Shown here piece by piece: positions 20,436 through 48,042 of a stretch of 64,000 bases of DNA. Made by a program: the position numbers and the translations under genes. The stretch's first letter is position 1, and each line of letters begins with the position of its first letter. The notes under the pieces were generated by a model. That model was not told the DNA's origin. It saw only the letters and a program-made list of their open reading frames with translations, and did no database searches. This stretch comes from an uncultured archaeon (GTDB taxonomy: Archaea > Asgardarchaeota > Lokiarchaeia > Sigyniarchaeales > SOKP01): assembly GCA_964486045.1 (NCBI GenBank), contig CAZALK010000001.1, positions 904,242-968,241 on the forward strand, written 5' to 3'.

Positions 20436-20454
20436 ATAATTCTGGTGATTTGAA

Positions 20455-21399
20455 ATGGTATTTTTAGTTACTGGTGGTGCGGGGTTTATTGGACGGTGGG
20501 TTGTAAAGAAATTATTATCAATGGAAAGAGACATCGTTGTAATTGATAATTTAAGTAATGGTAGTAAAGAAAACTTATTGGAATTTAATGAAAATTTGCA
20601 TTTAAAAGAAATCATTGTAGAAGATATAAGAAATAATAAAATTCTCGATGACTTGTTTTTAAAATATAGATTTAATTGTTGTATTCATTTAGCAGCTCAA
20701 ATAAATGTACAAGAAAGCTTAGAAAATCCTGAGAAATCGTTTGAATATAATGTCATAGGAACCTATAATCTCTTAGAAACTGCTCGTAAATATCAAACAA
20801 AAGTAGTTATTGTAGGAACATGTATGGTGTATGATTTAGCAGAATCGGTTATACCAATATCTGAGTCACATAGAACTAAGCCATCTTCTCCTTATGCCGG
20901 ATCTAAATTGGCAGCAGAGGATTTAGCTCTATCTTATTTTTACGGATTTAATTTACCAGTTGTTATATTAAGACCTTTTAACACTTATGGTCCATTTCAA
21001 AAAACTGATATGGAGGGCGGAGTTGTTCCTATATTTGTTAAGAATAAGATCAACAATGAAAAGTTAAAGGTATTTGGGGACGGAACTCAGACCAGAGATT
21101 TATTATATGTTGAGGATTGCGCTGAATTTATAGTAAAAGCGTCAGAATGCGAAAAATGTGTTGGGGAAGTTATTAATGCTGGAATAGGAGAAGATATTTC
21201 TATTAATGATTTAGCAAAATTAATTATTAGTGATGAGAACCTTATTGAACATGTTAAACATCATCACCCACAGAGCGAAATCATGAAACTAGTATGTAAT
21301 AACTTAAAAGCAAAGACATTATTAAAATGGGAACCAAAGATTTCATTAGAAGAGGGGATTGCTAGATTAGAAGAATGGATTCGTGGAGGTGAAAGATAA
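20455..21399 (+). CDS. NAD-dependent epimerase/dehydratase, Pal-like
   Basis: GGAGFIGRWVVK, HLAAQINVQES, TCMVY, PYAGSK, RPFNTYGPFQK, HPQSEI. Confidence 0.85.
   Translation: MVFLVTGGAGFIGRWVVKKLLSMERDIVVIDNLSNGSKENLLEFNENLHLKEIIVEDIRNNKILDDLFLKYRFNCCIHLAAQINVQESLENPEKSFEYNVIGTYNLLETARKYQTKVVIVGTCMVYDLAESVIPISESHRTKPSSPYAGSKLAAEDLALSYFYGFNLPVVILRPFNTYGPFQKTDMEGGVVPIFVKNKINNEKLKVFGDGTQTRDLLYVEDCAEFIVKASECEKCVGEVINAGIGEDISINDLAKLIISDENLIEHVKHHHPQSEIMKLVCNNLKAKTLLKWEPKISLEEGIARLEEWIRGGER
21385..21392 (+). promoter_or_regulatory. Shine-Dalgarno site of pseC
   Basis: GGAGGTGA immediately upstream of ATA ATA (21396/21399). Confidence 0.7.
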
Positions 21400-22592
21400 T
21401 AGAAAAACCAGCAATAGAAGGGGGAAAACCAGTTAGAGCGAATTTTCTTCCCTATGGAACCCAATGGTTAGATGATGATGAAATTGATGAAGTTGTAAAT
21501 ACATTAAAATCTAACTGGATTACTACTGGTCCTAAAATGAGACTTTTCGAGGAAAATTTTAATAAATATATTGGATCTAAATACGCAGTAGCTGTTAATT
21601 CTGGAACTGCCGCTTTACATGTATCTACTTCAAGTATTGACATAAATCCAGGAGATGAAGTAATTACTACCCCTTTAACGTTTGTTGCATCTGCGAATTG
21701 CATAGTTTATCGAGGGGGAACTCCAGTTTTTGCTGATATCAAAGAGGACACGTACAATATTAATCCTCTTGAGATTAAGAAAAAAATAAATTCAAAGACG
21801 AAGGCAATAATCCCTGTGCATTTTGCAGGTCAACCTTGCGATATGGATGAAATACATGAAATTGCTAATGAAAACGATCTGTATATAATTGAAGATGCCG
21901 CACACGCAATAGATGCAGAATATAAAGGGAAAAAAATAGGTAATCTCAGTGATTTAACAATTTTTAGTTTCCATCCTGTAAAAAATATCACCACAGCAGA
22001 GGGTGGTATGGTTACAACTAATAATGAGGAATTATATGAAAAGTTAGTAATGTTTAGAACTCATGGAATCACAAAGGATACTATAAAAAGATTTGGTAAG
22101 GAAGGGGGTTTTTATTATGATATGCAACACTTAGGATTTAGATATAACTTAAGCGAACTTCATTCTTCTTTAGGAATTCATCAGTTAAGGAAACTCAAAT
22201 CCTTTCAGAAAAGAAGAAGGGAAATTGTCAAAATTTATAACAAAGAATTAAATACAAATGATCTAATTAAAATTCCATTTGTAAAGGAAAATGTTAAACA
22301 CTCTTGGCATCTCTACATAATTCAATTAAATTTGGAAAATCTGAAGGTTGATAGAGATCATATTTTTAAAGCTCTTAGAGAAGAAAATATAGGCGTCAAT
22401 GTTCACTATATTCCAGTCCACTACCATTCATTTTATTATGAAAAATTTGGATTAAGAAAAGGGATATTACCAAAAGTAGAAAATTTATTTCCAAGATTAC
22501 TAACGATTCCGCTATTTCCTAAAATGAGTGATAAGGATGTTAATGATGTTATAAATGCTTTGGAAAAAGTTCTGAATTATTATCGAAAATAA
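21396..22592 (+). CDS. pseC: DegT/DnrJ/EryC1 aminotransferase (PseC-like); N-terminus extended upstream of the ORF-track start
   Basis: NSGTAALH, EDAAHA, SFHPVKNITTAEGG; in-frame upstream sequence IIEKPAIEGGKPVRANFLPYGTQWLDDDEIDEVVNTLKSNWITTGPK is the conserved N-terminus. Confidence 0.88.
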   Translation: MIEKPAIEGGKPVRANFLPYGTQWLDDDEIDEVVNTLKSNWITTGPKMRLFEENFNKYIGSKYAVAVNSGTAALHVSTSSIDINPGDEVITTPLTFVASANCIVYRGGTPVFADIKEDTYNINPLEIKKKINSKTKAIIPVHFAGQPCDMDEIHEIANENDLYIIEDAAHAIDAEYKGKKIGNLSDLTIFSFHPVKNITTAEGGMVTTNNEELYEKLVMFRTHGITKDTIKRFGKEGGFYYDMQHLGFRYNLSELHSSLGIHQLRKLKSFQKRRREIVKIYNKELNTNDLIKIPFVKENVKHSWHLYIIQLNLENLKVDRDHIFKALREENIGVNVHYIPVHYHSFYYEKFGLRKGILPKVENLFPRLLTIPLFPKMSDKDVNDVINALEKVLNYYRK

Positions 22593-22797
22593 AAAAAGAT
22601 TTAATCTTTTATTTTTCCTTGCATTCGTTTCTATTTAAGAAATGAGGTATTCCTTATTTTTCATTGATCTTAAATATATATTATAATTAACTCATTAAGT
22701 ATTAGAGTAAGTAATAAAAAGAATCAAGTATATTGATAGTGTAGCGTAAAGACTTACCCGAAGATAATATTTTAACTTTATAAATTGAGTTTATAAA

Positions 22798-23862
22798 ATG
22801 GAAAAGAAAGAAGTAGATCTTTATTTTGGCTTTCAAGAAGTTAAAAGCGACAATGCGATCAATTGGGAGAAGAGTCGTTCAGAAGCATATAAAGAATATA
22901 GGAAAAAATGGGATGAGATACCTAAAACGCTTAAAATACCAAAATTTCCATTACATTTAGATATTGAAGCTTCTAATAAGTGTAATCTCAAATGTCCAAT
23001 GTGTCCAAGGACAGTCCGAATTACTGAAGGAAAATGGAGAGCTGAAAGAAATTTTAACTTTTCTTTGTATAAAAAGGTTTTGGATGAAGGTGGAAAGAAA
23101 GGATTATGTGCATTAAATTTAAATCATTCAGGAGAGCCTTTACTTCATCCATCTTTGCCAGAAATGATAAAATATGCAAAAGATGTAGGGATACTTGATG
23201 TTTTTTTTCATACTAATGGTACTTTACTGACAGAAAAGATGTCTAGAAAACTGGTAACCTCAGGCCTTGATAGAATGGTGATTTCTTTTGATTCACCATA
23301 CAGAGAAAAATATAATAGAATTAGGATTGGAGCCGATTATGATCAAGTTTTCGATAATATTAAAAAAATGAAAGATGTAAAAAAAGAATTAAAAAGTCTT
23401 ACACCGATAACTCGAATCAATATGGTAAAATTCCTGGATATTGAAAAAAAAGAAATTGATGATGCGGTAAATTTGTTCTCTAAAATTGTCGATATAGTCG
23501 GATTTTTAGATTATGTAGACTATGATCTCGTATTTAGCAATATAGGAAACAAAATTGAATTTCCTGAAAATTACATATCAAATTTTATTTGTACCCAACC
23601 ACTCACAAGAATGACATTATATGAAGATGGCAGAGTTTTCCCATGTTGTTGGGATAGTTATGAGCTTTATTGTATAGGAGATGTAAATAAAAATAGTCTT
23701 GAAAATATTTGGACATCTGACAAATTAGAATTCCTCAGAAAGAAGCACTCAGAGGGTAAATTCTTTGAAATCCCTATGTGTAAGAATTGTATTTATGCAC
23801 TAGAATCTGATAATTTTTCTAAGAAAATTATTCAATCTTCTCATGGTAGAAAGAAATATTAA
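22798..23862 (+). CDS. radical SAM/SPASM(twitch) protein
   Basis: CNLKCPMC, SGEPLLHP, HTNG, DGRVFPCC, C-terminal CKNC. Confidence 0.9.
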   Translation: MEKKEVDLYFGFQEVKSDNAINWEKSRSEAYKEYRKKWDEIPKTLKIPKFPLHLDIEASNKCNLKCPMCPRTVRITEGKWRAERNFNFSLYKKVLDEGGKKGLCALNLNHSGEPLLHPSLPEMIKYAKDVGILDVFFHTNGTLLTEKMSRKLVTSGLDRMVISFDSPYREKYNRIRIGADYDQVFDNIKKMKDVKKELKSLTPITRINMVKFLDIEKKEIDDAVNLFSKIVDIVGFLDYVDYDLVFSNIGNKIEFPENYISNFICTQPLTRMTLYEDGRVFPCCWDSYELYCIGDVNKNSLENIWTSDKLEFLRKKHSEGKFFEIPMCKNCIYALESDNFSKKIIQSSHGRKKY

Positions 23863-23950
23863 AAAGTGGATTTTAAAAAAAACTTTTTATCAATATACCA
23901 CTTAAACAGAATTAGTAATGGTAATAATTAAAATCAAGATTTAAGTTTCT

Positions 23951-24946
23951 TTGCGTATGGAAAAATCTGAAAAACGAATAATGATTGTAGGAGTCGGGAA
24001 TATTGGAAGCCGACATTTACAGGCTTTAAAGGCCATTAATATTCCATTAGACATTTTTGTGATAGATCCAAATCCTGATTCATTAAAGCAAGCAAAAGAA
24101 ATGTATGATTCAATGCCCTCAAACAAACAAATTCATGAAGTTACTTATACAAGCTCAATTAAAAAACTTGGTCAAGAAATTGATATAGCAATTATCGCTA
24201 CTAATTCGGATATCAGGAGAAAGGTTATTGAGAAGTTAATTGAATTTAATCAAGTAAATAATTTTCTTTTAGAAAAATTACTATTCCAAAAAGTAGAAGA
24301 TTATCATTTCATTAAGGATCTCCTAAAAATAAATAATTGTCGTGCATGGGTTAATTGTAATAGAAGAATTACACCAACTTATAATAACAAAATAAAAAAT
24401 TGGTTTAATAAGAAAAAATTATTTTATTATAACATCTCTGGAAGCCTTTATGGCTTAATGACTAATGTTATTCATGAAATAGATTATATGACATATCTTC
24501 TCGAATCTAATGATTTTTATGTTGACACAACTTATTTGGATAGTAAACTCATCCAAAGTAAGAGAAAAGGATTTCTAGAAATGACTGGAATTTTACAAAT
24601 TCATTTTAAAAATGGTAGTCATGGTTTTTTTGCTCGATATCCTTCAGGAAGGCTTTCAGAAATGACGATAATTGAGTCAGATACAGACCGTTGTATTATA
24701 AACCTAATAGAGGAAGTATCATGGATCAAAAACATTCAAAAACTAGGATGGAAAACATTTAATGCGATGTTAACCTATCAGAGTGAATTAACTACTACAA
24801 TCATAGAAAATATACTAAATAAAGATAAAAGTTATTTACCCTCTTATAAAAATTCGATGACAATTCATCTGAAATTACTTGAACCTATATTAGAATTTAT
24901 AAATAAAAATTCTTTTCAAAAATTTGATATTTTTCCATTTACATAA
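23951..24946 (+). CDS. Gfo/Idh/MocA-family oxidoreductase
   Basis: GVGNIGSRHLQ, IIATNS, LLEK, WVNCNRR; probable start ATG 23957. Confidence 0.82.
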   Translation: MRMEKSEKRIMIVGVGNIGSRHLQALKAINIPLDIFVIDPNPDSLKQAKEMYDSMPSNKQIHEVTYTSSIKKLGQEIDIAIIATNSDIRRKVIEKLIEFNQVNNFLLEKLLFQKVEDYHFIKDLLKINNCRAWVNCNRRITPTYNNKIKNWFNKKKLFYYNISGSLYGLMTNVIHEIDYMTYLLESNDFYVDTTYLDSKLIQSKRKGFLEMTGILQIHFKNGSHGFFARYPSGRLSEMTIIESDTDRCIINLIEEVSWIKNIQKLGWKTFNAMLTYQSELTTTIIENILNKDKSYLPSYKNSMTIHLKLLEPILEFINKNSFQKFDIFPFT

Positions 24947-24969
24947 AATTTTGAGAGGAAAATGATAAT

Positions 24970-25935
24970 ATGACTAATGAACTAAATTATTCAGTCTTAT
25001 TGGTTGGAGCTGGAGAAATGGCAATCGAATACGTAAAAGTTTTAACAGCCATGGAAAAAAATTCTATTATTGTGGGTAGAGGTGAAGAATCTGCGAAGAA
25101 ATTTAAGGAAATTACTGGTCTTAATGTAGAAACAGGAGGAATTAATAATTTTTTAAAAAAAACGAGATGCTCTTCTGAATATGCAATAGTAGCAGTAAAC
25201 GGTAACCAATTAGGAGAGGTAACAAGAGAGCTTATTAAATTTGGTATAAAAAATATCCTTTTAGAAAAACCTGGTGGGCTAGACGATAAAGACATTGAAT
25301 CTGTTGCTGAGTTAACTGATAGATATGAAGCTAATGTATTAATTGCTTATAATCGTCGCTTCTATGCATCAGTATCCAAAGCTAAGGAAATTATTAAAGA
25401 AGATGGAGGTGTAACTTCCTTTTATTTTGAGTTTACAGAATGGAGTCATATAATTGAAAAGGCAAATGTGCCCATAGAAGTTAAGAATCGTTTAGTCCTA
25501 CATAATTCTTCGCATGTAATCGATTTAGCATTCTATTTGGGGGGTGAGCCAATAAATATTAATTGTTATGTTAATGGTGGTTTGAGTTGGCATCCCACGG
25601 CGTCTATATTTACAGGGGCTGGAATCAGTTCCAAAAATGCAATCTTTTCATATCATTCAAATTGGGATGCACCTGGACGATGGGGTGTAGAAATTTTAAC
25701 TAAAAAACATCGACTGATCTTTAGACCTTTAGAGAAACTAAATATTCAAAAAAGAGCAAGTACGGCAATTAAAGAAATTGATATTAACGATGATTTAGAT
25801 ATAAAATTTAAACCAGGTTTATATAGAGAAGTTGAGGCTTTTTTAGGTGATAATGAGAATGAATTCATGACTATTAAACAGCAAGTATCACGATTAGCTG
25901 TTTATAACATGATTATTAAAGGTAATCATAAATAA
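24970..25935 (+). CDS. Gfo/Idh/MocA-family oxidoreductase
   Basis: GAGEMA, LLEKPGG, AYNRRFY, NSSHVIDLAF. Confidence 0.85.
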   Translation: MTNELNYSVLLVGAGEMAIEYVKVLTAMEKNSIIVGRGEESAKKFKEITGLNVETGGINNFLKKTRCSSEYAIVAVNGNQLGEVTRELIKFGIKNILLEKPGGLDDKDIESVAELTDRYEANVLIAYNRRFYASVSKAKEIIKEDGGVTSFYFEFTEWSHIIEKANVPIEVKNRLVLHNSSHVIDLAFYLGGEPININCYVNGGLSWHPTASIFTGAGISSKNAIFSYHSNWDAPGRWGVEILTKKHRLIFRPLEKLNIQKRASTAIKEIDINDDLDIKFKPGLYREVEAFLGDNENEFMTIKQQVSRLAVYNMIIKGNHK

Positions 25936-25976
25936 AGTGCAAATTTTTAATATAAAAATCAAAGACAATATTTTAA

Positions 25977-27125
25977 TTATATTTCTAATAAGTTAAGATA
26001 GAATTCCCGTACAATATCTTCAGGAATTGTTTTAATTTTATAACTAAAATCTTTTGAGCAAACTTGATCTATAGCTCTTTTTGTATTTTTATCAAAATTT
26101 TCATTAAAAACCCAAAAATTTTTAAAATTTGGCTTTATATTTTTAAATTTATTAAACATATTAATACCTCTGAGTATAGCATTATCAATAAAAGGAACAC
26201 CAATTTTAGTTAAATCCATATATGCGCTAGTATCAAAACCAATTACTAACGTTGAAATGAGAGGATAGAAGGTTGCTTCTGCTGGATACCATATGTCATC
26301 ATAAATTATTAAATCTGCTCCAATTTTCTTTGGAACACGTTGATCTTTTTTTCTTTGTTTAATTAAGATAAAAAAGTTTTTACTTTTAAGATATTTTATA
26401 ATAGAGCGTACTAATCTTACGTGGCCATAAAAAGGAAAGAAAATTAAAGCAATCTTCTTATCTGTATCAATTTTATTTCTTGCAAAATCTATTTGTCTAT
26501 TAATATTTGAAAAAGCAACTGGTAAGGGAGTAACTAAAAATTGTGCGTTGTATCTAGACTGAAAGTGTAATCCATACTCCTCTGAGGAGCATAAAAATAT
26601 AGTCTTTGAATCATAATTTTTAATTTCATCAAAACCGTGATGTATTGCATAATGTTTTTTGTAATCAAACTTATCGCTATCTAAACAATTTATACTAAAA
26701 AGAACATCACATTCTATTTTTTTTTTGGTCAAAGGAATAATTTTAGTGGGATTTAAGGAAGATGCAATATTTTTAAATTTTTCATAGTTCTTTTTGTGTA
26801 GCAAATCATTGTATTTAGCTCTAACATTGGTTATGCATAAAAAAATTGCTTTATTCTTTTCATCTTTTATTAATTCAATTATCGGACCAAAATATTTGAA
26901 ACATCCTAAACCGTTACACACTGCAAAACATACTTTTATTGTTTTATCCTCGTAATCTTCGTAAATCTCCAATAATTCTTTTTCTCCTATAGAGTCAAAT
27001 TTGTTAATTTTTTTAGTATTTTTTTTTATCTTTGATTCTAATTTTTTTAAGCTATCAGATTTAGTGATTTCTATAACTCTATTTAGAATCTTCAGAATAA
27101 AGTCGAAAATTATTTTAAGATTCAT
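25977..27125 (-). CDS. hypothetical protein, possibly GT-B fold
   Basis: 382 aa ORF with alternating beta/alpha pattern; IHHGFD and GFDTSAYMD..GVPFID segments resemble GT-B C-terminal domains. Confidence 0.55.
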   Translation of the reverse strand: MNLKIIFDFILKILNRVIEITKSDSLKKLESKIKKNTKKINKFDSIGEKELLEIYEDYEDKTIKVCFAVCNGLGCFKYFGPIIELIKDEKNKAIFLCITNVRAKYNDLLHKKNYEKFKNIASSLNPTKIIPLTKKKIECDVLFSINCLDSDKFDYKKHYAIHHGFDEIKNYDSKTIFLCSSEEYGLHFQSRYNAQFLVTPLPVAFSNINRQIDFARNKIDTDKKIALIFFPFYGHVRLVRSIIKYLKSKNFFILIKQRKKDQRVPKKIGADLIIYDDIWYPAEATFYPLISTLVIGFDTSAYMDLTKIGVPFIDNAILRGINMFNKFKNIKPNFKNFWVFNENFDKNTKRAIDQVCSKDFSYKIKTIPEDIVREFYLNLLEI

Positions 27126-27664
27126 AAGTAATTTTTCAATTGTTAATACTTAGATATTAGCTTGACTAATTTAATTATTTTATCAATTGACTAATTATGC
27201 ACTTGAACTATAGCAGAAAGCTTTCAAACCGTTTATTATAACTCGAAAACATACAAGAACGCTAAATTTCAACCGCGTTTAAATTTAGAGGCCGGAAAAA
27301 CACGATACAAAAGTATTGAACTTAATATTTATTTCATTCATGTTTATAATTATTTGTAAGATCTTAGCAAATTTGTTTTAAAAAATAGAATTTGCCTGAT
27401 ACAGGTAATATTAGCACCATTTCCTAAAAAAATAGTTTATACATTTAAAATTAAGTCTTTAGGATTTATTACCATTCGCTAATTCTTACATCCAGATGAT
27501 GTGGGTTGAAACGGTTTTGGTTTTTGAATTAAAGTTAACTACTAATAAAGATCGGGATAAAATGTGAGTAAATATTGCATTTTTTTTTGTAAGTAAAAAA
27601 TAGAATACGTAAATAGCTGTTAAAGTTTGGTAAAAAATAAATAGTTAATAATTATTCCACAATT

Positions 27665-28429
27665 ATGCATTTTAAATTTTGGTTGAAAACATATTTATAT
27701 CGCTTTATTCCATTTAATATAGGGCATCTACATAAATATAAAGAACCTAACTATGACTTCAGTCGTGATAAACATCCTGTTCGAAAAAAACATCATGGAG
27801 GTGGTGGTTGGGAAAATCAAATGCAAGAAGATTTTCATTACCGTGATTATGAAGATTATGAAGAATATAAAATTCATCAAATACAGAAATTTAATGAAAT
27901 ATTAAAAATCGGTTATTTTTCTAATCGAACAATATATTTTTACCGAATAAAATTTTATAAAACTTTTTATAATTTATCAAAATACGTGCCAAAATCTTCT
28001 TATATTCTATGCGCTGGTGCTCGTCAGGGAACCGAAGTAGAAGTTTTACAAGATCTTGGATTTAAGAAAGCTTATGGAATTGATTTAAATCCCGGACCAA
28101 ATAATAAATTTGTCAAATTTGGGGATTTCATGCATTTAGAGAATCCCAACTCCTCCTTAGATATGATTTACTGCAATTGTCTTGATCACGCATATAATCT
28201 TGAATCATTTTTTACTGAGCATGCACGTGTAATAAAACCAAAAGGATTTGTATTGTATCATATACCATTAAGAGGTGGAGGTCCATTTGAATCTGTTAAT
28301 TGGAAATCTAGTACATCAATTATTATCCTAATGCTTAAATTCTTTAAAAGAATTATAAAAGTAGAGACAGAATTCAATCTAAAATGGATCTTATTACAAG
28401 GGAAAAAGAATGCAACGAATCAATTATAA
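27665..28429 (+). CDS. SAM-dependent methyltransferase
   Basis: ILCAGARQGTEV, GIDLNPG, GDFMHL, NCLDHA, RVIKPKG. Confidence 0.82.
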   Translation: MHFKFWLKTYLYRFIPFNIGHLHKYKEPNYDFSRDKHPVRKKHHGGGGWENQMQEDFHYRDYEDYEEYKIHQIQKFNEILKIGYFSNRTIYFYRIKFYKTFYNLSKYVPKSSYILCAGARQGTEVEVLQDLGFKKAYGIDLNPGPNNKFVKFGDFMHLENPNSSLDMIYCNCLDHAYNLESFFTEHARVIKPKGFVLYHIPLRGGGPFESVNWKSSTSIIILMLKFFKRIIKVETEFNLKWILLQGKKNATNQL

Positions 28430-28583
28430 TATTAATATTTAATTCAAAGAAATCAAATTTTGTTTGATTAAATGAGATTTTCACATTTATGAATTATATC
28501 CTTATTTTAAAATTAAACTCATTCAAAGATAAATAGTCCTAAGAAGAATATATATAAATTAAATATCAAATTATTATTTAAAA

Positions 28584-29416: not shown

Positions 29417-29488
29417 ATTTTACAATAAAAAAAACTATTATAATTAACACCTATAAAATTCATAAATTAGCTGATTTAAACTAATAAT

Positions 29489-31144: not shown

Positions 31145-31244
31145 AATTACTCAAAGTCTTTCGTAACTATAATTTTAAACTCTCAAAGGTATTCGAATTT
31201 AAGTTTAGGAAATGAGTCAGGAGTGTAACACTCATAATTAATAT

Positions 31245-36724: not shown

Positions 36725-36751
36725 AGTTTTAATATAATTTATATGAAATAA

Positions 36752-37468: not shown

Positions 37469-37600
37469 CTAATAATAACCAATTTTTGTTAATCTAATTA
37501 CTAATAAAAATGATAGTAATTGAAAGTTTTATATGCAAAGAGTCTACTATTATATTTTTTGTTAAGTAAAAAAGTTAATTAAATTCAAGGTAATTTCTTT

Positions 37601-38704: not shown

Positions 38705-38750
38705 CTCAAAGCCCTCAATTATTATTCATATAAAAAATTTAAGATTTAAA

Positions 38751-40430
38751 CTAATCAAAAAACTTTTCAATATTTAATTCCATTGCCGCAACAGGAAATT
38801 CTAATTTAAAATTTAATAAAACTTCTGGATCTATTTCACCAATTTCACCAATAACCGAATTACCTAAAAAAATTTCTCCAAATCTTCCATCAATGTAGCT
38901 TACATTTTTACCAGGGCTTACTTGGTAATCACTATAATATCCAAGCGAAGTCATAACGAAGTCTAAAGTAGATTTAAGCTCTGTATAATTTGCATCTTCA
39001 TGATAAGACACAGCAGATAGATGGACCTCTCTTTTTGTTCCCGTTTCTTCTTTTCTATCTAATAAAAGAACATCACCAACTTCGAAGATTCTAATTGGTT
39101 TCTCCTCAGATCTATTTAAAAGTAAGGTATTCATTAATTTTGGAAGCAATTTTGTTCTAGTTGTATTATACTCTTTAGAAACAGGATTTGCAATCTCAAC
39201 AATATCTTCCATCACAAATTCTTGTTTCATATAGTCAAATTGTTTTTCAGAGCTAGCAAGAATGAAATTTAAAACCTCTAGATATCCTGCCCCTATCATA
39301 ATTTTCCTTATTCTATTTGAATAATCTTGAATAGGATGATACTGTCCTATACCGCCTAGATGGATAGTCAAAGGTAAATTAACGTATCCAAACCCTATAG
39401 CACATTCTTCAGTAAAATCTACTGGATGCATTAAATCTCCTCTGTACGCAGGTACTAAAACATCTAAATAACCATTCTTTTTGGATTTTTTAGCATTCAT
39501 TCTCACTTTCTTAAAACACTTTATCATCTCTGAAATTGATAAGCTTAATCCAATTACATTGTTAATATAATCAATTTCAACCTCCCATCTTGTTGGTTCT
39601 AAATTAGGAGTCACAATTTCTCTCTCTCCTTCATAATTCACTTTGACACTTTCAATTTTTGCCCCCATATCTGCTAATGTTGTAGATAAGATATTTAATG
39701 CTAAATTTACAGCTTTAAAATCGGTACCAGTTAAATCTAAAAACAAATTTTTTGTATCATCTGTCACCGTAGTGAGTTCACCATTTATGATAGGTGGGAA
39801 GGATAATACTTCATTTTTTCCATCAAGGATGACAGGGTATACTTCTTTACCTTCTAAAATATGAGCATACTCGATTCCTTTTTCGTGTAATAATAGAATT
39901 TCCTCTAAATTCATTGGATAACCATCTCCATGAAGGGGAGTAAAGCTGACTGAATCTGGTTTTACTGCAGTATATTTGTATGGGGGGATAATTTTATCTA
40001 AATCATGAACACCAATTGCAACTTTTTTTCTATCCCTACCAACAGCCCAATGTAAGTGTTCTTGAATATTCATCAGAGTTGCAACTTCATCTTCATCCAA
40101 ATCAATATCTCTAATAACACCACAGACTATATATGGCCTTACTTTTTTCACACTCGGATCCACAGTAATGGATATAGGTCCTGGCTTAATATCATAAGAA
40201 GGAAGACCTTCTTCAATTTCATAATATCCTTTGAGAGTTCTAGCAATACCCTCTGGACTTGAAAAATCTGGTCTATTTGGATTATATTCCACTTTTATTT
40301 TTTGTTCTTCTTCATTGATATCTTCTAAATCCAAGCTAATCCATTGTAAATCATACTCTAATTTCTTTATATCTAATTGTTTTCCAACTAATTTTTCTAA
40401 TCTTTCTACTTTCAAATCAATTGTAGGCAG
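38751..40430 (-). CDS. pheT: phenylalanine--tRNA ligase beta subunit (archaeal type)
   Basis: PNRPD, AIGVHD, LSFPPIING, RIFEVGDV; start either GTG 40439 or CTG 40430. Confidence 0.93.
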   Translation of the reverse strand: MPTIDLKVERLEKLVGKQLDIKKLEYDLQWISLDLEDINEEEQKIKVEYNPNRPDFSSPEGIARTLKGYYEIEEGLPSYDIKPGPISITVDPSVKKVRPYIVCGVIRDIDLDEDEVATLMNIQEHLHWAVGRDRKKVAIGVHDLDKIIPPYKYTAVKPDSVSFTPLHGDGYPMNLEEILLLHEKGIEYAHILEGKEVYPVILDGKNEVLSFPPIINGELTTVTDDTKNLFLDLTGTDFKAVNLALNILSTTLADMGAKIESVKVNYEGEREIVTPNLEPTRWEVEIDYINNVIGLSLSISEMIKCFKKVRMNAKKSKKNGYLDVLVPAYRGDLMHPVDFTEECAIGFGYVNLPLTIHLGGIGQYHPIQDYSNRIRKIMIGAGYLEVLNFILASSEKQFDYMKQEFVMEDIVEIANPVSKEYNTTRTKLLPKLMNTLLLNRSEEKPIRIFEVGDVLLLDRKEETGTKREVHLSAVSYHEDANYTELKSTLDFVMTSLGYYSDYQVSPGKNVSYIDGRFGEIFLGNSVIGEIGEIDPEVLLNFKLEFPVAAMELNIEKFFD

Positions 40431-40440
40431 CGTTTTCACC

Positions 40441-41982
40441 TCACTTAAGATAAGACTGTTGTCTTAACCATTTTATTGGATTAATATAAAAATCTCGTAT
40501 ATCCTCTCGTCCATAATAAGGCATCGCAATTCTTTCAAGCCCTTGTCCCCAAGCTAAAACCCGAGTTGGTTCTTTTATTCCCCAAGGGTATGTAACTTCT
40601 GGTCTAAATATCCCAGATCCTCCCATTTCCAACCATTCTCCTAATTTGTCATAGTAAACTGAAACTTCCATAGAAGGTTCTGTATAAGGAAAAAATCCTG
40701 GTCTAGTGACTATTTTCTTAAATCCCATTTTTCTATAAAATTCAGATAATAAGCCGATTAAATCACATAACGTAACATTATCATCAATAACAATTCCTTC
40801 TATTTGGGTAAATTCTGCTAAATGAGATTTGTCAACACTTTCATTTCGAAAGACTCTATCAATACAAAAAACCTTTACAGGGACTTTATCATTTTCGTTG
40901 TAAAATTGAGCTAATCTACGCATAGTTGTTGCGGTTGTATGAGTCCTCAAAACTGTCTTTTTAGCATTGTTAACATCCCATTTATACCCCCATCCTAAAG
41001 AACCTGAATCCCCTCCATTCTCATGAATTTCTTGTACAGCTAATACTCTTTCTTTATCTGGCAATCTTGCTGTTTTTGGATTATTAAGATAAAATGTATC
41101 TTGCATATCTCGAGCAGGATGATCCTGAGGCTGAAATAACGCATCGAAATTATAAAATGCACTTTCAATAATTGGTCCTCTTATTTCTATAAAACCCATT
41201 GATAAAAAAATCTCCCTTATTTCATTGATTAAACTTATTAATGGATGAATTTTTCCTGCCTTTAATAATGGGCCTGGTTTGGTGACATCAAATGGTTTTA
41301 AGTCAGATTTTCGCCAGCTTCCTGAACTTAGCATTTCAGGTGTAATTTTACTAACTTGCTTTAACTCCTCAATTTCCGAAATTGAGATTTTTTTCCCTTT
41401 CCCTGTTAAAAATATAGTTCTTTGTGTTTCCCGCGTTTTCTTTATTAATTTTCTTTTATTTAAACTATCGAGTAATTTTAAATTATCGTTAGATAATGAA
41501 GAATGATCTATGACTTTTTTTACTTTAAATTTTGTCAGAAAAGATTCGAGTTTAGTTTGAGGAAAATCTTCTACAATAAGATATATTTTGTCTTCTCCTG
41601 TAGCTTTACTTTGCGCAATCCACCTGTTTTTCTTTAAATTTGAAATCCCAATATAAAAAATTGATTGTTCGAATTTTGAATGTTTTAATAATTCCTCTAT
41701 GGTAAATTCTTTTACCTTGTCTTTCAAAAACAAATTTAATAGTTGTCTTTCAGGTAATCCATTTTCCAAATACTCATAACCCTCATCATTTAAGGAAATT
41801 TGATTAATCTCCACTTCTTCAAATCCTCCTAATTTATTAGCGATCAATTCATTTACGGCAGACATAAGTACTATGTAATCTAATTCCATTTCTTTTGCTA
41901 AATTAGTAGTTATTACATTAGATTGCTTATTTTTTATCACATCTAGAATTTCAATTGTTTGTTTTCTAAGTTTGATTGTCAT
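40441..41982 (-). CDS. pheS: phenylalanine--tRNA ligase alpha subunit (long archaeal/eukaryotic type)
   Basis: NFDALFQPQDHPARDMQDTF, LRTHTT, FRNE, FPYTEPS, GLERIAM. Confidence 0.95.
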   Translation of the reverse strand: MTIKLRKQTIEILDVIKNKQSNVITTNLAKEMELDYIVLMSAVNELIANKLGGFEEVEINQISLNDEGYEYLENGLPERQLLNLFLKDKVKEFTIEELLKHSKFEQSIFYIGISNLKKNRWIAQSKATGEDKIYLIVEDFPQTKLESFLTKFKVKKVIDHSSLSNDNLKLLDSLNKRKLIKKTRETQRTIFLTGKGKKISISEIEELKQVSKITPEMLSSGSWRKSDLKPFDVTKPGPLLKAGKIHPLISLINEIREIFLSMGFIEIRGPIIESAFYNFDALFQPQDHPARDMQDTFYLNNPKTARLPDKERVLAVQEIHENGGDSGSLGWGYKWDVNNAKKTVLRTHTTATTMRRLAQFYNENDKVPVKVFCIDRVFRNESVDKSHLAEFTQIEGIVIDDNVTLCDLIGLLSEFYRKMGFKKIVTRPGFFPYTEPSMEVSVYYDKLGEWLEMGGSGIFRPEVTYPWGIKEPTRVLAWGQGLERIAMPYYGREDIRDFYINPIKWLRQQSYLK

Positions 41983-42036
41983 AAACCACAACTTTCATTT
42001 TTTATTCTTTCGTTAATATTTTTAAAATCTTAAGTG

Positions 42037-42051
42037 TATTTAAATCTTTCG
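42037..42051 (-). promoter_or_regulatory. BRE/TATA promoter of pheS-pheT-pheA
   Basis: Minus strand CGAAAGATTTAAATA about 55 nt upstream of the pheS ATG. Confidence 0.55.
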
Positions 42052-42654
42052 TGAATTAAATCGTTTGAATTTGCTCGATCTTGAAATAGCATAATCTTTT
42101 AATGATTAAAGTCTTAAAATATCAGTTTTAAAATATAGTAGAGATACATATTCCGTAGCCAAGAGATCTATTCTACTGTTTAGATTATTAATCCCTTGGC
42201 AAGTTAAAGAATTTAATGAAAAATGAAACTGGGTTATGGATAACTAATGCACTTGAAACATAAACCTGTTTAGTCATATTGATCTATACACAAGTATTCA
42301 TTCATAATTAATTTATATATTTTTACTCTTAAAAAATTTTCTTACCCATATTGGTTAGAAATGGTATAATTTTAAACAATACTATTCATTTTATTAATAA
42401 TTTATTAATAATATCGAATTTAGAGCACTTAATTTAGTCCCGAGATTCTATTAATAATCTTTAAATAAAATAATTCAAATTTTTAAAGTAATCAATAAGA
42501 TAAAAACATCTAATATTTGAATTTAAATGAATAAATCTAAACTAATAGCTTTGGTTTTATGAATAAATTAAATACTATTTAGTGATTTTAACAATTAAAA
42601 GATATTTTTCTATCTTATCAAACAAGACGTTTCAAAATAGAATCAATTATTATA

Positions 42655-43350
42655 ATGTCAAAAATCAAATCTTCTCCCTTTGCAAACAAATTTACAAATT
42701 TTTTTCGCAAGAATCTAATAAGAGAATTTAGATTTATGATTATTTCTAAATTCTTAGCAAAAAAAAAAAATAAAATTCTTGACATCGGCTGCGGAAACTT
42801 TTCTGTTCAACGTACTAAACTAAATTTTCCAAATTGCCATTATTACGGATTAGATTTGTCTCGAAGATTTTACACTTTAGAAGAGTTATCATTAATGGAT
42901 GAATTTTACGAGTTAAATCTTAATTCAGGAAATTTCTCTGAAATTCCAAACGATTTCTTCGATTTATTAATACTATCACATGTAATCGAACACTTACCAC
43001 ATGGAGAAAAAAGATTGATACAATTAATACCGAAATTAAAGAAAAATGGGTTAATATACATAGAATATCCTTCAATCAGAAGCACTAAACTTCCACATAG
43101 GAAAGGAACTTTAAATTTTTACGACGACTCTAGTCATGTAAGTTTATTTTGCAATGATACATTACTATATATTTTAAAAAGAAAAGATTTTAAAGTATTA
43201 AAGCAAGGTATCCGTCGAGATTTCAGAAAAATTATTTTTCTCCCAATAATAATCGCTTATGATTTATTCAGATATCAACGAGTAAAAACGGGTCATTTAT
43301 GGGATCTTTTTGGATTTGCCGATTATATCATAGCGTTAAAGAATGTTTAG
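42655..43350 (+). CDS. class I SAM-dependent methyltransferase
   Basis: ILDIGCG, LSHVIEHL, NFYDDSSHV. Confidence 0.85.
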   Translation: MSKIKSSPFANKFTNFFRKNLIREFRFMIISKFLAKKKNKILDIGCGNFSVQRTKLNFPNCHYYGLDLSRRFYTLEELSLMDEFYELNLNSGNFSEIPNDFFDLLILSHVIEHLPHGEKRLIQLIPKLKKNGLIYIEYPSIRSTKLPHRKGTLNFYDDSSHVSLFCNDTLLYILKRKDFKVLKQGIRRDFRKIIFLPIIIAYDLFRYQRVKTGHLWDLFGFADYIIALKNV

Positions 43351-43407
43351 AATTCTGATAATATTAAAAATTTAAAATTAATACTAAATTTAAATTTGTT
43401 TTTTCTC

Positions 43408-43760
43408 ATTAGATTTTATGCAAATGACACTGTAAGCTGTGAAATTTTTATAGATATAATGTCTATAATGAGCTTCCCCCTCCAATTACAGAACCAAGAG
43501 CACATTTTCTGTTAATCTTCATTTTGATTGGAACATTTTCATTGTTAGGAATAGTTGTTTTTAGCATTGTATATAAAAAAGTTTATAGATCCTCAAAAAA
43601 ACCTAAGCGCCGAAAGGTTAAGCTAAAAAAAGTAAAATCAAGAAAAGAGATCCCCAAATGTGTCGAAAATCTTTGCCCATTTTGTAATACTGCTATTATT
43701 AATGAGCAGAAGTTTTGTACTTATTGTGGTAGTAAGCTTAAAGAAGCGGAAAATAATTAA
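43408..43760 (+). pseudogene. 5'-truncated remnant of a single-pass surface protein with C-terminal double zinc ribbon
   Basis: IRFYANDT (43408-43431), frameshift, Pro-rich ELPPPITEP, TM helix, basic stop-transfer segment, CPFC...CTYC. Confidence 0.55.
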
Positions 43761-43773
43761 AAATTTCTTTTTT

Positions 43774-44217
43774 TTATAATTTCTCTCTTATAGATGTGGA
43801 GCTTATTTTTTGGTTATTTTTGTCTTTGAAAATTGGAATTACAATGAGGATAAGAGGCTGTAAACCTATTTTTTCTCTTTTATCATTCAATTTTACCGCG
43901 TTTTCATAAGTTTCTTGACTTACAACTAATCCTTCATATTCAGGATCTTGAGCGTATCTACTCATATCATCCCAATTCTTTATTTCAACTATATTAATTC
44001 TTTCTAAATTAGCAAAAGAGTTTATAAATTCTTTCAGTTTGTCTTGTCTTGTTTTATAATCCTCTAAATTTGAATAATATTTCTTTTTTTCTAAGAGTTT
44101 CTGACTTGTTAATCCAATTTCAACATTCTCAGAAATAGATAAGGCAGTTTTTAATAAAAATTTATGTCCTTCATGAAGATGATCGAAAGTTCCGCCCATT
44201 CCAACTTTCTTTAGAAT
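43774..44217 (-). CDS. coaD: archaeal phosphopantetheine adenylyltransferase
   Basis: KKVGMGGTFDHLHEGH, VVSQET, KISSTSIR; first beta strand lies upstream of ATG 44199. Confidence 0.88.
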   Translation of the reverse strand: MLKKVGMGGTFDHLHEGHKFLLKTALSISENVEIGLTSQKLLEKKKYYSNLEDYKTRQDKLKEFINSFANLERINIVEIKNWDDMSRYAQDPEYEGLVVSQETYENAVKLNDKREKIGLQPLILIVIPIFKDKNNQKISSTSIREKL

Positions 44218-44247
44218 CTAGAATACACCTTTACATTTGAAAAACTT

Positions 44248-44685
44248 TTATAATTTTTCCTTAATCTTTACTTGCTTTTTCTTATCTTCATCTTTTTTAT
44301 TGGGTTCAGTTGGCTTTTTCAATTTTACAGAATAAATTTGGTTAATCTCCATTGATTCAGCACATTCGCTACATTTACCTATTTTTCTATAGATAAAATC
44401 ACCCTTCTCGTAATTCCTAACCTTTGTAAGTCCACATAAACTACATAAAAGAATCGTCAATGTTTGCCTTATCGGTTCTACTGGGCTTTTTTGCCATTGG
44501 ATCAATGTAGCTCCAACACAAATCATCATAAAACCAATAGACCAACTTGTTATTTGGTCACCAATCCCGGAATAAATAAATACTGCTCCTAAAATGATAA
44601 AAATTATAGAAATTAGATTTTTTAGAACATTTTTAAGCGTAATTCCTTTTTTTAGGATATCCTCATCGTCTTCTTCTTCAATCAT
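44248..44685 (-). CDS. two-TM membrane protein with CxxC...CxxC zinc ribbon
   Basis: Two hydrophobic helices, CSLC and CSEC, GDFIY. Confidence 0.7.
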   Translation of the reverse strand: MIEEEDDEDILKKGITLKNVLKNLISIIFIILGAVFIYSGIGDQITSWSIGFMMICVGATLIQWQKSPVEPIRQTLTILLCSLCGLTKVRNYEKGDFIYRKIGKCSECAESMEINQIYSVKLKKPTEPNKKDEDKKKQVKIKEKL

Positions 44686-44803
44686 AGAAAATGTCCAAAT
44701 TTCTTGTTATCAATGCTTTATAATAGAAAAGAATAAATAAATTTTCTTATTATAAAAACTAAATAGATTTAAATTATCAAAGAGACTTTAATTTTAAAAA
44801 ATA

Positions 44804-45946
44804 ATGTTTAATATTGCTCAATTAGGTGGACAAAGTACCGATCCTATATCTCTAATTCTAAATTTGTTATTCTTTGTATTGATTTTTGTCTCAATGTTTT
44901 ATGGACAAAAGCTCCAAGGGTGGAAAGCATCTAAAGAAATACAAGCGGGCTTAGATAAGCTAAAGAAATGGAATGATGAATGTAAAGAAATTCTGGTTAG
45001 CAATTTTAAAGAATTTGCTGATAAAAAGAAAACTCAAAAAGATTTGATGCTTCAACTTGAGGATTTCATTACATTTATAACCATACCTCCAGTTTCACTT
45101 GATCCTTATGGCATTATCCCTAAATTTGACCATGTAGTTGATGTAAGAGATTTTCGATTTAAGGAAGAAGTTGAATTACTAGCACCACTTGCAGATACTG
45201 TTCAAAGATATAATTTAGAGAATCTTGTAGAAGCTACAATGGCAATAGATTCTATATATAGGCTTATTAGACATTTTCTCATATTAGGCAAGAAATCAAA
45301 ATCAATGATTCTCCTACTTCAAATCTCAATGCAATTGGGTTTAATCTTAAGCATGGCTAAAGCCTACTACTATGCGGCAAAGTCTTTTGCGGAAGGTAGC
45401 CCAATAGGAGATGGTCTTGGACCTTTAGTCGTGGCAAGTTTTTTAAGAGATATTTCGAACGGAGAAGTGGAGGCGAAAGAAATTGAAAGAGATACTATTG
45501 TACAAGAGGTAGAATTTGAAGATAGGGACATTTATATCGTGAGAGCAAAAGGTCCAGGGGGTTCTGTGGGAAAGCCGGGAAAAGCGATAAAGACGCTAGT
45601 TGATAAGCATGGTAATGATATTTCACGCATAATTATGATTGACGCTGGTTTGAAATTAACGGGAGATAAAACTGGATCAATGGCTATAGGTGTAGGAGCT
45701 GCTATAGGAGGTCTCGGAATTGAAAAATATTTTATTGAAGAATCTTCAACTGAAAAAGCGATACCCATTGATGCATTAATTTGTAAGCAATCTTTAGAGG
45801 ATGCGATTACAACAATGAAGAGACCAATAACAAAATCGGTCGCGAAATTTGTTGATAAGATAAAGATGACAATTCGAAAACGCACTGAAAAAGGTACTAA
45901 AGTAATTATAGCTGGAATCGGAAACACAATTGGAATCGGTGTATAA
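44804..45946 (+). CDS. DUF1512-family archaeal membrane protein
   Basis: N-terminal TM, PVSLDPYGI, PIGDGLGPLV, KGPGGSVGKPG, IMIDAGLK, GIGNTIGIG. Confidence 0.8.
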   Translation: MFNIAQLGGQSTDPISLILNLLFFVLIFVSMFYGQKLQGWKASKEIQAGLDKLKKWNDECKEILVSNFKEFADKKKTQKDLMLQLEDFITFITIPPVSLDPYGIIPKFDHVVDVRDFRFKEEVELLAPLADTVQRYNLENLVEATMAIDSIYRLIRHFLILGKKSKSMILLLQISMQLGLILSMAKAYYYAAKSFAEGSPIGDGLGPLVVASFLRDISNGEVEAKEIERDTIVQEVEFEDRDIYIVRAKGPGGSVGKPGKAIKTLVDKHGNDISRIIMIDAGLKLTGDKTGSMAIGVGAAIGGLGIEKYFIEESSTEKAIPIDALICKQSLEDAITTMKRPITKSVAKFVDKIKMTIRKRTEKGTKVIIAGIGNTIGIGV

Positions 45947-45952
45947 TGTAAC

Positions 45953-45966
45953 TTTTTTTTTTTTTT
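45953..45966 (+). terminator. oligo(T) archaeal terminator
   Basis: T14 run beginning 7 nt after the DUF1512 stop codon. Confidence 0.6.
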
Positions 45967-46137
45967 ATTTCTGTTTTTTGCTTTATGTTTCTAATTTTGC
46001 TAGTATAAGGGGAGTTTTATCTTTTATAGGAAAAAAATAGAAATTGTTTTATAATTAAGGTAATAAGATCAATTAACTAAAATCATAAAACTACAATAAA
46101 ATAGTTTGATTAAATTCATAATTGAGGTGTAAAGATT

Positions 46138-48012
46138 ATTTACGGTTATATGGGAAAAATTCTGAGAGTTAATTTAACTAATGGAGAAATTAGTGAAGAG
46201 TTTCCAGATGAAGAAACAATTAAAATGTATTTAGGTGGAGCGGGACTCGCAACTAAATATTTGATCGATGAGGTACCTAGGGGGACTGATCCATTAAGTC
46301 CAGAAAACTTATTAATTTTTATGACGGGACCATTAACGGGAACACCTTCTCCAAGTACAGGAAGGTATAGCGTTGTTGCAAAATCTCCTCTAACTGGCTT
46401 TTGGGGAGAAGCGAATTCTGCTGGTTTTTGGGGTCGGGATCTTAAGAGATCTGGATTCGATGGGGTAATTTTTGAAGGTAAATCATCAAAACCGCTGTAT
46501 CTGATTACAGAGGATGGTAAAGCCGAACTTAAAGATGCAGGACATTTATGGGGAAAAAATACATCAGAAACTACAAAATTGATTAGAGAAGAATTAGGTG
46601 ATAATTTTAATGTAGCATGCATCGGAATTGGGGGAGAAAATCTGGTTAAATACGCAGCTATAATGAATGATTGTGATAAACCTAACTATGGTCGAGCAGC
46701 TGGAAGATGTGGGATGGGAGCTGTAATGGGTTCAAAAAATTTAAAGGCAATAGCTTCAAGGGGGAAATTAAAAATTAAAATAGCGAATCCAGAAGAATAT
46801 AAAGCAGAAGCTCGGCAGAGGTATGACTGGGTTAATCAAAGTTTGTTGAAAATGACACTGGAAGTATTTGGAACCGCAGCCATTCTTGATTTAGTTAACG
46901 CAAAGGGTGGCCTTCCAACAAAAAATTGGCAAACCGGTGTATTTAAAGATGCAGATATGATAAATGGAACAGCAATTAACGAAACAATTCTAACTGGAAG
47001 GAAACCTTGTTTTGCATGCCCTGTTGCTTGTGGGAGACTTTCTGAAATTAAAGAAGGAAAGTATAAAAGTGCTGGTGAAGGACCAGAATATGAATCAGTC
47101 GTGTCATTTGGTACTATGTGCGGAATCAATGATTTAGGAGCAATAACCTTAGCCCATTTTCTATGTAATGAGTATGGTCTTGACACTATATCTGCAGGAA
47201 GCACTATAGCATTTGCAATGGAATGTTATGAGAAAGAGATATTAAGCAAGGAGGATGCAGAGGGTATAGATTTTAGTTTTGGTAATTCAGATTCTATTAT
47301 AGAACTCGTTCCAAAAATTGCTAAACGAGAAGGTATTGGAGATCTTTTGGCTGAAGGATCCAAAAGGATGGCTGAAAAACTAGGAAAGAATTCGATAAGA
47401 TTTGCGATGCAAGTAAAAGGCTTGGAACTTCCTGCATATGATAGTAGAGCCGCCAAAATAACTGGGTTATCTTTTGCTGTTGCCAATCGTGGAGGGGATC
47501 ATATGACGGCGTTTATTGAAGGTCCTACTTTCATGTCGATGCCCTTTATGATAGTTGAAGATGCAGAAGTAGGGGATATACTTAAAGAAAATGTTGAAGA
47601 TACAGAGGTTGTAAAAAATTTTGAGGATGCATTTGGAATTTTTGATGCAATCGGTGGGTGCAAATTTATGGGAATGGTTTTAACTTCAGAGGATTGGGCC
47701 TCCTTAATGTCAAAACTCTTAGGATATGACTATACTGTAGCAGATTTTAAAAAAACAGGTGAGAGAATTTACAATCTTGCAAGAATTTATAATATTAGAG
47801 AAGGCTTAACTAGAGCTGATGATACTCTTCCAGCAAGATTGTTGGAAGACCCATTACCTGAAGGGCCTGCAAAAGGAGAAGTAGTAAATCTGGAGCCACT
47901 GTTAGACGCATATTATGACTACAGAGGTTGGGATAGAGATGGGATCCCTACTCAGGACAAACTCAGAGAATTAGGGTTGGAATGGGCAATTGATGTAATA
48001 AAGAAAAAGTAA
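46138..48012 (+). CDS. aor: tungsten-containing aldehyde:ferredoxin oxidoreductase
   Basis: KSPLTG, AAGRCGMGAVMGSKNLKAI, CFACPVAC, GPEYE, GLDTIS, VKGLELPAYD; consensus N-terminus (M)YGYMGKILRVNL begins at ATT 46138. Confidence 0.93.
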   Translation: MYGYMGKILRVNLTNGEISEEFPDEETIKMYLGGAGLATKYLIDEVPRGTDPLSPENLLIFMTGPLTGTPSPSTGRYSVVAKSPLTGFWGEANSAGFWGRDLKRSGFDGVIFEGKSSKPLYLITEDGKAELKDAGHLWGKNTSETTKLIREELGDNFNVACIGIGGENLVKYAAIMNDCDKPNYGRAAGRCGMGAVMGSKNLKAIASRGKLKIKIANPEEYKAEARQRYDWVNQSLLKMTLEVFGTAAILDLVNAKGGLPTKNWQTGVFKDADMINGTAINETILTGRKPCFACPVACGRLSEIKEGKYKSAGEGPEYESVVSFGTMCGINDLGAITLAHFLCNEYGLDTISAGSTIAFAMECYEKEILSKEDAEGIDFSFGNSDSIIELVPKIAKREGIGDLLAEGSKRMAEKLGKNSIRFAMQVKGLELPAYDSRAAKITGLSFAVANRGGDHMTAFIEGPTFMSMPFMIVEDAEVGDILKENVEDTEVVKNFEDAFGIFDAIGGCKFMGMVLTSEDWASLMSKLLGYDYTVADFKKTGERIYNLARIYNIREGLTRADDTLPARLLEDPLPEGPAKGEVVNLEPLLDAYYDYRGWDRDGIPTQDKLRELGLEWAIDVIKKK

Positions 48013-48042
48013 AATCTAAGTTTATGTGAAGAGGTGATTTGA

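Follow-up and report, generated by a model that had tools for sequence, protein, structure and literature searches.

Probable Shine-Dalgarno-anchored initiation at AUA, AUU and AUC codons in a genome of the Sigyniarchaeales

A 64,000-nucleotide window (C1:904242-968241) of the genome of the Asgard archaeon SOKP01 (Sigyniarchaeales; 5.18 Mb, 45 contigs, about 30% GC) contains four unrelated genes that raise the question of where translation begins. The genes encode a PseC-type aminotransferase (pseC), the beta subunit of the archaeal phenylalanyl-tRNA synthetase (pheT), the archaeal phosphopantetheine adenylyltransferase (coaD) and an aldehyde:ferredoxin oxidoreductase (aor). A preliminary description of the window had placed their starts at ATA, CTG, ATT and ATT, respectively, each a few nucleotides behind a GGTG-type Shine-Dalgarno (SD) motif. 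ATT, ATC and ATA are alternative initiators of NCBI table 11; they are referred to here as ATH (AUH in the mRNA), ATG, GTG and TTG are the canonical starts, and spacing is the number of nucleotides between the end of the SD and the codon. The analysis indicated that SD-anchored initiation very probably occurs at AUH codons in about 90-120 genes of this genome, in the window at the ATT of coaD and aor and the ATA of pseC, and perhaps at the CTG of pheT.

Because the 16S rRNA ends in ...GGAUCACCUCCU, GGTG(A), the start-proximal part of the full SD AGGAGGUGA, is the true SD core. The genome was represented by 4,219 non-overlapping stop-to-stop open reading frames (ORFs) of at least 100 codons, covering 85% of its length. 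GGTG-containing SDs of at least 5 nt located no more than 30 nt from an ORF 5' boundary were collected, and the codon at a spacing of 5-9 was scored in each frame. The in-frame codons included 139 canonical starts (ATG 89, TTG 39, GTG 11) and 120 ATH (ATA 50, ATT 49, ATC 21), where about 29 are expected per control frame; the counts in the other two frames were 21 and 1 for ATA, 10 and 18 for ATT, and 5 and 3 for ATC. A stricter set consisted of 127 SDs that had no canonical start nearby in any frame. Here, 86 ATH codons were in frame at a spacing of 5-8, as compared to 15 in both other frames (binomial p ~7e-27). The 86 were divided into 38 ATA, 29 ATT and 19 ATC, with 5, 5 and 4 in the other frames together.

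The spacing of the ATH codons peaked at 6-8 nt, with ATA at 6-7 (14 and 20 sites), ATT at 7-8 (12 and 9) and ATC at 6-8 (7, 5 and 5), a tighter distribution than the 5-10 nt of the canonical GGTG genes. The possibility that ATH genes have longer or stronger SDs was rejected, since the mean match was 5.91 nt as compared to 5.87 nt for the canonical GGTG genes, with the same AGGTGA consensus. No ATH peak or excess was seen behind decoy 4-mers (GTGG, TGGG, GCTG, GGCT, GGTA, GGAA and others) or behind SDs that had only GGAG, and the effect therefore depends on the GGUGA segment of the duplex, next to the start. ACG gave a small signal (5 in frame and 0 out of frame), and CTG was not enriched behind SDs genome-wide (2 in frame and 2 out of frame), so CTG was rejected as a general start.

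The onset of coding was located by the periodicity of G. The stretches from each ATH to the first canonical start, 11.2 kb in total over the 116 listed sites, had G frequencies of 0.27/0.15/0.09 at codon positions 1/2/3, as compared to 0.29/0.14/0.13 in reference coding sequence, while the 48 nt on the 5' side of the ATH were flat at 0.11. Coding begins at the ATH. The distance from the ATH to the first canonical start had a median of 22 codons, was at least 20 codons in 65 genes and reached 90-218 codons in some. After correction for chance there are roughly 90 real ATH genes, or 2% of the long ORFs, to which cases with weak SDs would add; the most likely number of ATH-started genes is about 90-120, or 2-3% of the ORFs of at least 100 codons.

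The SD itself is a minority signal in this genome. About 570 first canonical starts (~14%) had an SD of at least 4 nt at a spacing of 4-10/11, and G was enriched on the 5' side of first canonical starts only at -14 to -8, in agreement with the reported rarity of SDs in Lokiarchaea (PMC7531240, PMC12993045).

The spacings and upstream in-frame stops given in the preliminary description for the four sites (codons 4-8 nt behind the SD, and stops in pseC, coaD and aor) were all correct, as were those of the three canonical comparators (Table 1). Its expectation of near-cognate codons enriched genome-wide at SD spacing was borne out by the scan, although four cases in 64 kb overstated the density about threefold. 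The tolerance of AUA and AUU that it had proposed was upheld, with the addition of ATC and perhaps some ACG, and that of CUG was not. The proposal that initiation is positioned mainly by the SD had to be abandoned, since only about 14% of the first canonical starts have one. Overall, the earlier interpretation was partly supported: right in substance and over-generalised with regard to SD dominance and CTG.

Table 1. Coordinates of the start regions discussed; positions are those of the window unless a contig is named.
Feature	Position	Strand	Remark
SD TGGAGGTG of the pseC-like gene	21384..21391	+	complementary over 8 nt to the anti-SD at the 16S 3' terminus; lies within the 3' end of the preceding pseB-like gene
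PseC-type aminotransferase gene	21399..22592	+	putative ATA start 21399-21401, 7 nt past the SD; public call from ATG 21537
SD GTGAGGTG of pheT	40437..40444	-	overlaps the pheS stop codon; contains in-frame GTG 40439-40437
pheT (archaeal PheRS beta subunit)	38751..40430	-	family N-terminus at CTG 40430-40428, 6 nt past the SD; start uncertain: CTG, or GTG inside the SD
SD TAAAGGTG of coaD	44226..44233	-	(A/G)GGTG kept in nearly all 19 genus orthologs, 8 nt before ATT
coaD (archaeal phosphopantetheine adenylyltransferase)	43774..44217	-	putative ATT start 44217-44215, 8 nt past the SD; public call from ATG 44199
SD TTGAGGTG of aor	46122..46129	+	GAGGTG shared by the 17 genus orthologs, 16 of which have TGAGGTG
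aor (aldehyde:ferredoxin oxidoreductase)	46138..48012	+	putative ATT start 46138-46140, 8 nt past the SD; public call from ATG 46150
GGTG, 7 nt, ATG 20455 (pseB-like epimerase/dehydratase)	20444..20457	+	canonical comparator
AAGAGGTG, 6 nt, TTG 48043	48029..48045	+	canonical comparator
TTATGGTG, 8 nt, TTG 51410	51394..51412	+	canonical comparator
aIF1/SUI1 gene, the only one	G000:C1:612478-612800, outside the window	-	putative ATT start; no canonical start
S28e and L7Ae, adjacent ribosomal protein genes	G000:C13:161491-162200	-	without canonical starts

The start columns were compared across orthologs of the same genus, of the order and of other Asgard classes. In coaD, an in-frame TAG lies immediately 5' of the ATT and the first ATG is at 44199. 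The protein matched NF001985 with 134.4 bits (cut-off 104) over residues 3-146. The ATT was invariant in 19 of 19 genus orthologs, which share the start ATT CTN AAR AAA GTT GGA, and two of them had GGAGGT or GGGGGT as the SD. Of the 18 other genus orthologs, 16 had a leucine codon (TTA, TTG or CTA) in the column of ATG 44199; the ATG is therefore an internal residue and not the start of coaD. Other families of the order had longer coaD N-termini with ATG, GTG or TTG.

The aor gene has two ATT codons, at 46135 (5 nt) and 46138 (8 nt), behind an in-frame TGA at 46123, and its first ATG is at 46150. Both domains scored above their gathering thresholds (PF02730, AFOR_N, 266 bits; PF01314, AFOR_C, 464 bits). 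In 17 of 17 genus orthologs an invariant ATT followed the SD at 8 nt and was continued by TAC GGT TAT ATG, while the codon preceding it varied (AAA, ATT, AAT, AAC). The second ATT, 46138, is thus most likely the start, judged by SD spacing and conservation. Many AOR paralogs of this genus (in relatives G001-G040, and at G000:C1:172254-174137) had one in-frame TAA or TGA within the match, which may sit just 5' of a short N-terminal offset or be something else.

In pseC, two ATA codons follow the SD, at 21396 (4 nt) and 21399 (7 nt). The frame reads TGA(21390-21392) AAG ATA ATA GAA AAA CCA GCA ATA GAA GGG GGA, and the first canonical codon, ATG 21537, lies 46 codons on the 3' side of 21399. The PseC equivalog TIGR03588 matched with 461.7 bits (cut-off 423.5), its positions 1-380 aligning with residues 16-392 of the protein as read from ATA 21399, and a start at ATG 21537 would drop 31 profile positions. 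The two closest orthologs, G018 (82% identity) and G017, had ATG in the column of ATA 21399, which indicates that the ATA is a recent ATG-to-ATA change. A programmed frameshift or fusion of pseB and pseC was rejected, since in the orthologs the downstream ORF has a separate ATG, located past the stop of the first. The pseB-like gene ends in TAA (21397-21399), which shares one base with the ATA (TAATA), like the common TAATG overlap of coupled genes, and the pair formed by the epimerase/dehydratase (20455-21399) and pseC resembles a PseB-PseC sugar-modification operon.

The CTG form of pheT matched TIGR00471 with 573.4 bits (cut-off 282.65), profile positions 1-551 on residues 1-558. The column of the CTG held ATG (8) or TTG (4) in 12 relatives, behind the same SD. 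GTG 40439 lies within the SD duplex and is therefore badly placed for reading as the start; to judge from the alignment, pheT may begin at the CTG, where the relatives have TTG or ATG. The four near-cognate starts proposed in the preliminary description thus fell into two groups, the conserved ATT of coaD and aor, and the ATA of pseC and CTG of pheT, which are private changes from ATG or TTG. The exchange of ATG with a near-cognate codon at the same ortholog column that it had predicted was seen for pseC, and an ATH aligned with ATG in relatives in 4 of 9 sampled genes.

Genes essential to translation showed the same pattern. In the two adjacent ribosomal protein genes, the S28e start region reads TTGGTGA, 6 nt, ATA and that of L7Ae AGGAGATG, 7 nt, ATT; S28e, L7Ae and aIF1 had no canonical start before conserved residues. 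The preliminary description had pointed to aIF1 for inspection, and the inspection brought out that aIF1 itself has a near-cognate start, ATT. The gene reads TAA GAG AGT ATT AAA GAC GAC GAC ATA TGT CCG, and the first canonical codon comes only deep within the SUI1 domain. Both the ATT and AGGTTGTGATAA on its 5' side were invariant in 23 of 23 readable genus sequences, this genome included, while the pair of codons that separates the stop from the ATT varied across the genus, as did a later Ile codon. Other families of the order had TTG, ATG, GTG or ATA in this column, and the other Asgard classes mostly had ATG. Three lineages differed: G047/Baldrarchaeum and G057/G068 had ATA at 7 nt behind an SD, and G042/G053 had CTG. 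The aIF1 leader and first codons of G047 were identical, letter for letter over the stretch shown, to the Candidatus Baldrarchaeum yapensis record. Among named genomes, mostly Bathyarchaeia and Methanomethylicia, the aIF1 start was canonical in 79 of 80 loci, the exception being the Asgard Baldrarchaeum. In the aIF1 of G042 and G053, which belong to another Asgard family (loci L071 and L073), the apparent CTG start lies 7 nt behind GGAAGGTG and there is no in-frame canonical codon; it is a better CTG candidate than pheT.

The distribution of ATH starts among lineages was sampled with 400 kb from each relative and a non-Asgard pool of 1.16 Mb; the related genomes are not independent of one another. 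In-frame ATH codons at SDs without a canonical start, compared to SD-led canonical starts, numbered 75 vs 268 in this genome and 3 vs 141 in the non-Asgard pool (Fisher p ~1e-9). The ratios were 4 vs 25 in the same genus (G024), 3 vs 29 and 3 vs 34 in other Loki families (G032 and G038), and 4 vs 42 and 6 vs 64 in other Asgard families (G065 and G076). Pooled, these five samples (20 vs 194) differed from the non-Asgard pool with a Fisher p of 0.007. ATH use in the five relatives, at about 10% of SD-led canonical starts, is only suggestive, as 3-6 ATH each is underpowered. In the 400-kb sample of the GC-rich relative G033, in-frame ATH were not above background.

The initiator tRNA (C1:583600-583760, + strand) is standard, with a CAU anticodon, A1:U72 and a GGG/CCC anticodon stem, and carries a 47-nt intron at position 37/38. 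A search for GGG..NAU..CCC arm patterns found no initiator-like tRNA with another NAU anticodon in an inventory that is incomplete at 25-31 tRNAs. Most of the tRNA genes appear to be interrupted, and aragorn also called a tRNA-Sec (anticodon TCA).

A mechanism can be proposed in which the AGGTGA-type SD pairs with the 3' end of the 16S rRNA (UCACCU) and anchors the 30S subunit, so that the codon 6-8 nt downstream would be set into the P site. The ordinary initiator tRNA (CAU) would be accepted there on AUG, UUG and GUG and, unusually often, on AUA, AUU and AUC, which differ from AUG by a third-position mismatch only. Bacterial AUU, AUA and AUC starts are read in this way, via a third-position mismatch with the initiator tRNA. 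Met-tRNAi would thus decode the ATH codons, and ATH starts would be weaker than AUG. In P. abyssi, pre-positioning by the SD is combined with local scanning (PMC6237735); a similar process here would tolerate the third-position mismatch more than elsewhere. Use of ATH would be set by aIF1, made from its own genus-invariant AUU, in a loop like that of bacterial IF3/infC. In S. solfataricus, aIF1 rejects AUU complexes (PMC4705826), which makes an infC/IF3-like loop through the AUU start of aIF1 plausible by analogy. It is conceivable, though rather doubtful, that Asgard archaea, and most strongly this Lokiarchaeia-type genus, have a graded start-codon system in which about 100 AUH genes, among them those for ribosomal proteins and metabolic enzymes, are tuned by the level of aIF1, with the fixed-AUU aIF1 mRNA closing a homeostatic loop.

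Several observations support SD-anchored initiation at ATH codons, 1) the census statistics, 2) the spacing, 3) the onset of periodicity at the ATH, 4) ortholog conservation and 5) the fit to family profiles. Other points weigh against it. Chance would be expected to produce ~29 of the 116 listed ATH sites, or about a quarter; the SD of aIF1, AGGTTGTGAT, is imperfect and stands 10 nt from the ATT, where the optimum is 6-8 nt; the absence of CTG enrichment counts against the CTG of pheT; and initiation itself at the ATH codons is read from sequence evidence. The AFOR_N domain begins only at aor residue 6, and a start at the conserved ATG 46150, four codons further on, would leave the Pfam domain complete, so that homology alone does not decide against that ATG. 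The ATG form of coaD likewise loses just one profile position of the CTP_transf_like domain, and the public gene calls use the downstream ATG. It could be argued from these facts that the proteins start at the downstream ATG, GTG or TTG as annotated and that ATH codons follow SDs by coincidence or as part of an untranslated leader. However, this explanation, which we regard as very improbable, does not account for the in-frame excess of 86 vs 15 with its 6-8 nt peak, the coding periodicity from the ATH, the 31 profile positions lost by pseC, the leucine codons at the coaD ATG column, the genes with 90-218 codons before any canonical start, or S28e, L7Ae and aIF1. Errors in the assembly or consensus of this metagenome-assembled genome, or start-codon decay in pseudogenes, are also very improbable as a general cause, since for coaD, aor and aIF1 the same ATT was found in 17-23 genomes that had been assembled independently, the ORFs are unbroken and show coding periodicity, and errors would not pick in-frame ATH codons 6-8 nt behind GGTG. 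Error would hold at most for single cases such as pseC and pheT: their ATA and CTG are private to this genome and one base off the relatives, and either could be a consensus error or a decaying start with little or no expression, in an assembly of 45 contigs with 7.8% estimated contamination.

The abutment or overlap of pseC and pheT with the stop of the upstream gene would be expected if ribosomes reinitiated after the upstream cistron at any codon behind an SD, the ATH being a by-product of operon coupling. Coupling was rejected as the cause, since an upstream stop on the same strand was found within 30 nt of only 22% of the ATH genes, as compared to 37% of the canonical SD-led genes; aor and coaD follow non-coding spacers and the codon set is restricted to ATH, leaving reinitiation with very little probability. 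Lastly, AUA, AUU and AUC together make up the Ile codon box, and aragorn and Rfam recovered only 25-31 tRNAs, many of them intron-bearing, which leaves room for a second initiator-like tRNA. A dedicated second initiator or an Ile-tRNA reading AUH, with proteins that begin with Ile or via a variant initiator, is nevertheless extremely improbable, as the anticodon-arm patterns revealed only the standard CAU initiator and a third-position mismatch with the initiator tRNA is the known bacterial route for AUU, AUA and AUC (PMC4705826).

If ATH codons are starts, gene finders limited to ATG, GTG and TTG truncate, or may miss, about 2-3% of the proteins, among them PseC, phosphopantetheine adenylyltransferase, AOR, S28e, L7Ae and aIF1. 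The systematic N-terminal mis-annotation anticipated in the preliminary description was found in the public products of pseC (351 aa, 46 residues lost), coaD (141 aa) and aor (620 aa), all ATG-truncated forms, which has consequences for the cloning of Asgard proteins, for their phylogenies and for the prediction of their structures; a published tubulin study already corrected such a start by hand (PMC13394414). The near-cognate start on an eIF1 homolog is among the features that allow ideas on how start-codon stringency evolved to be tested in cultured Asgard strains. If the loop exists, autoregulated start-codon stringency by an eIF1/SUI1 factor would predate eukaryotes and would have arisen in an SD-guided rather than a scanning setting.

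Elsewhere in the window, a 145-aa ORF between coaD and aor (44248-44685, - strand) begins at an ordinary ATG without an SD and, with a hydrophobic stretch and a CxxC...CxxC pattern, looks like a zinc-ribbon-like membrane protein. An Rfam scan of the window gave no match.

In the papers covered, a search for near-cognate or non-canonical starts in Asgard archaea or Lokiarchaea found no systematic description, only a remark on a single gene, the tubulin gene AtubA of a Kariarchaeaceae (Asgard) metagenome-assembled genome, which has a 'likely' rare ATT start (PMC13394414). As in the genes described here, the deposited protein was too short and an upstream ATT, with a ribosome-binding site at a plausible distance, restored the first beta-strand; it differs in that the remark served the cloning of that one gene and was not part of a comparative or genome-wide study. 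Archaeal SD-led initiation as described for the P. abyssi aEF1A mRNA (GGAGGUGA, 5 nt, AUG; PMC6237735) shares the SD core, the spacing and a pre-positioned complex with local scanning, whereas reviews list only AUG, GUG and UUG as archaeal starts (PMC4705826, PMC7531240). The known parallel is bacterial, the AUU, AUA and AUC starts behind SDs of E. coli infC (IF3) and pcnB and of S. aureus infC, cvfC1, ccpN and citZ (PMC4705826, PMC13009471). These have the same third-position mismatch to the initiator anticodon, follow a strong, start-proximal SD at the optimal distance and are conserved between species. In S. aureus, AUA and AUU starts behind extended start-proximal SDs gave about 10-30% of AUG expression (PMC13009471) and are, by analogy, the nearest experimentally studied parallel. 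The sequences here appear to be of the infC/pcnB type, with no in-frame canonical start before the conserved N-terminus, the SD spacing and conservation, except that pheT has GTG 40439 before its N-terminus. In both cases the gene of a fidelity factor has a near-cognate start, infC in bacteria and aIF1 in this genome. Eukaryotic eIF1 is autoregulated through its own poor start context. That system, discussed in PMC4705826, likewise joins a homologous SUI1-fold factor to a weak initiation site of its own, but there the site is an AUG reached by scanning and set in a poor Kozak context, as opposed to an AUU with an SD-like element known from its sequence. The bacterial set, for its part, is a handful of genes, in contrast to the approximately 100 (2-3%) here, where ATH codons are nearly as many as canonical starts behind GGTG-type SDs; the machinery here is archaeal and eukaryote-like (aIF1/aIF1A/aIF2, no IF3), and the likeness lies in gene sequence, a shared autoregulation being hypothetical. 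This genome very probably shows bacterial-type AUH initiation at an unusual scale on archaeal, eukaryote-like machinery.

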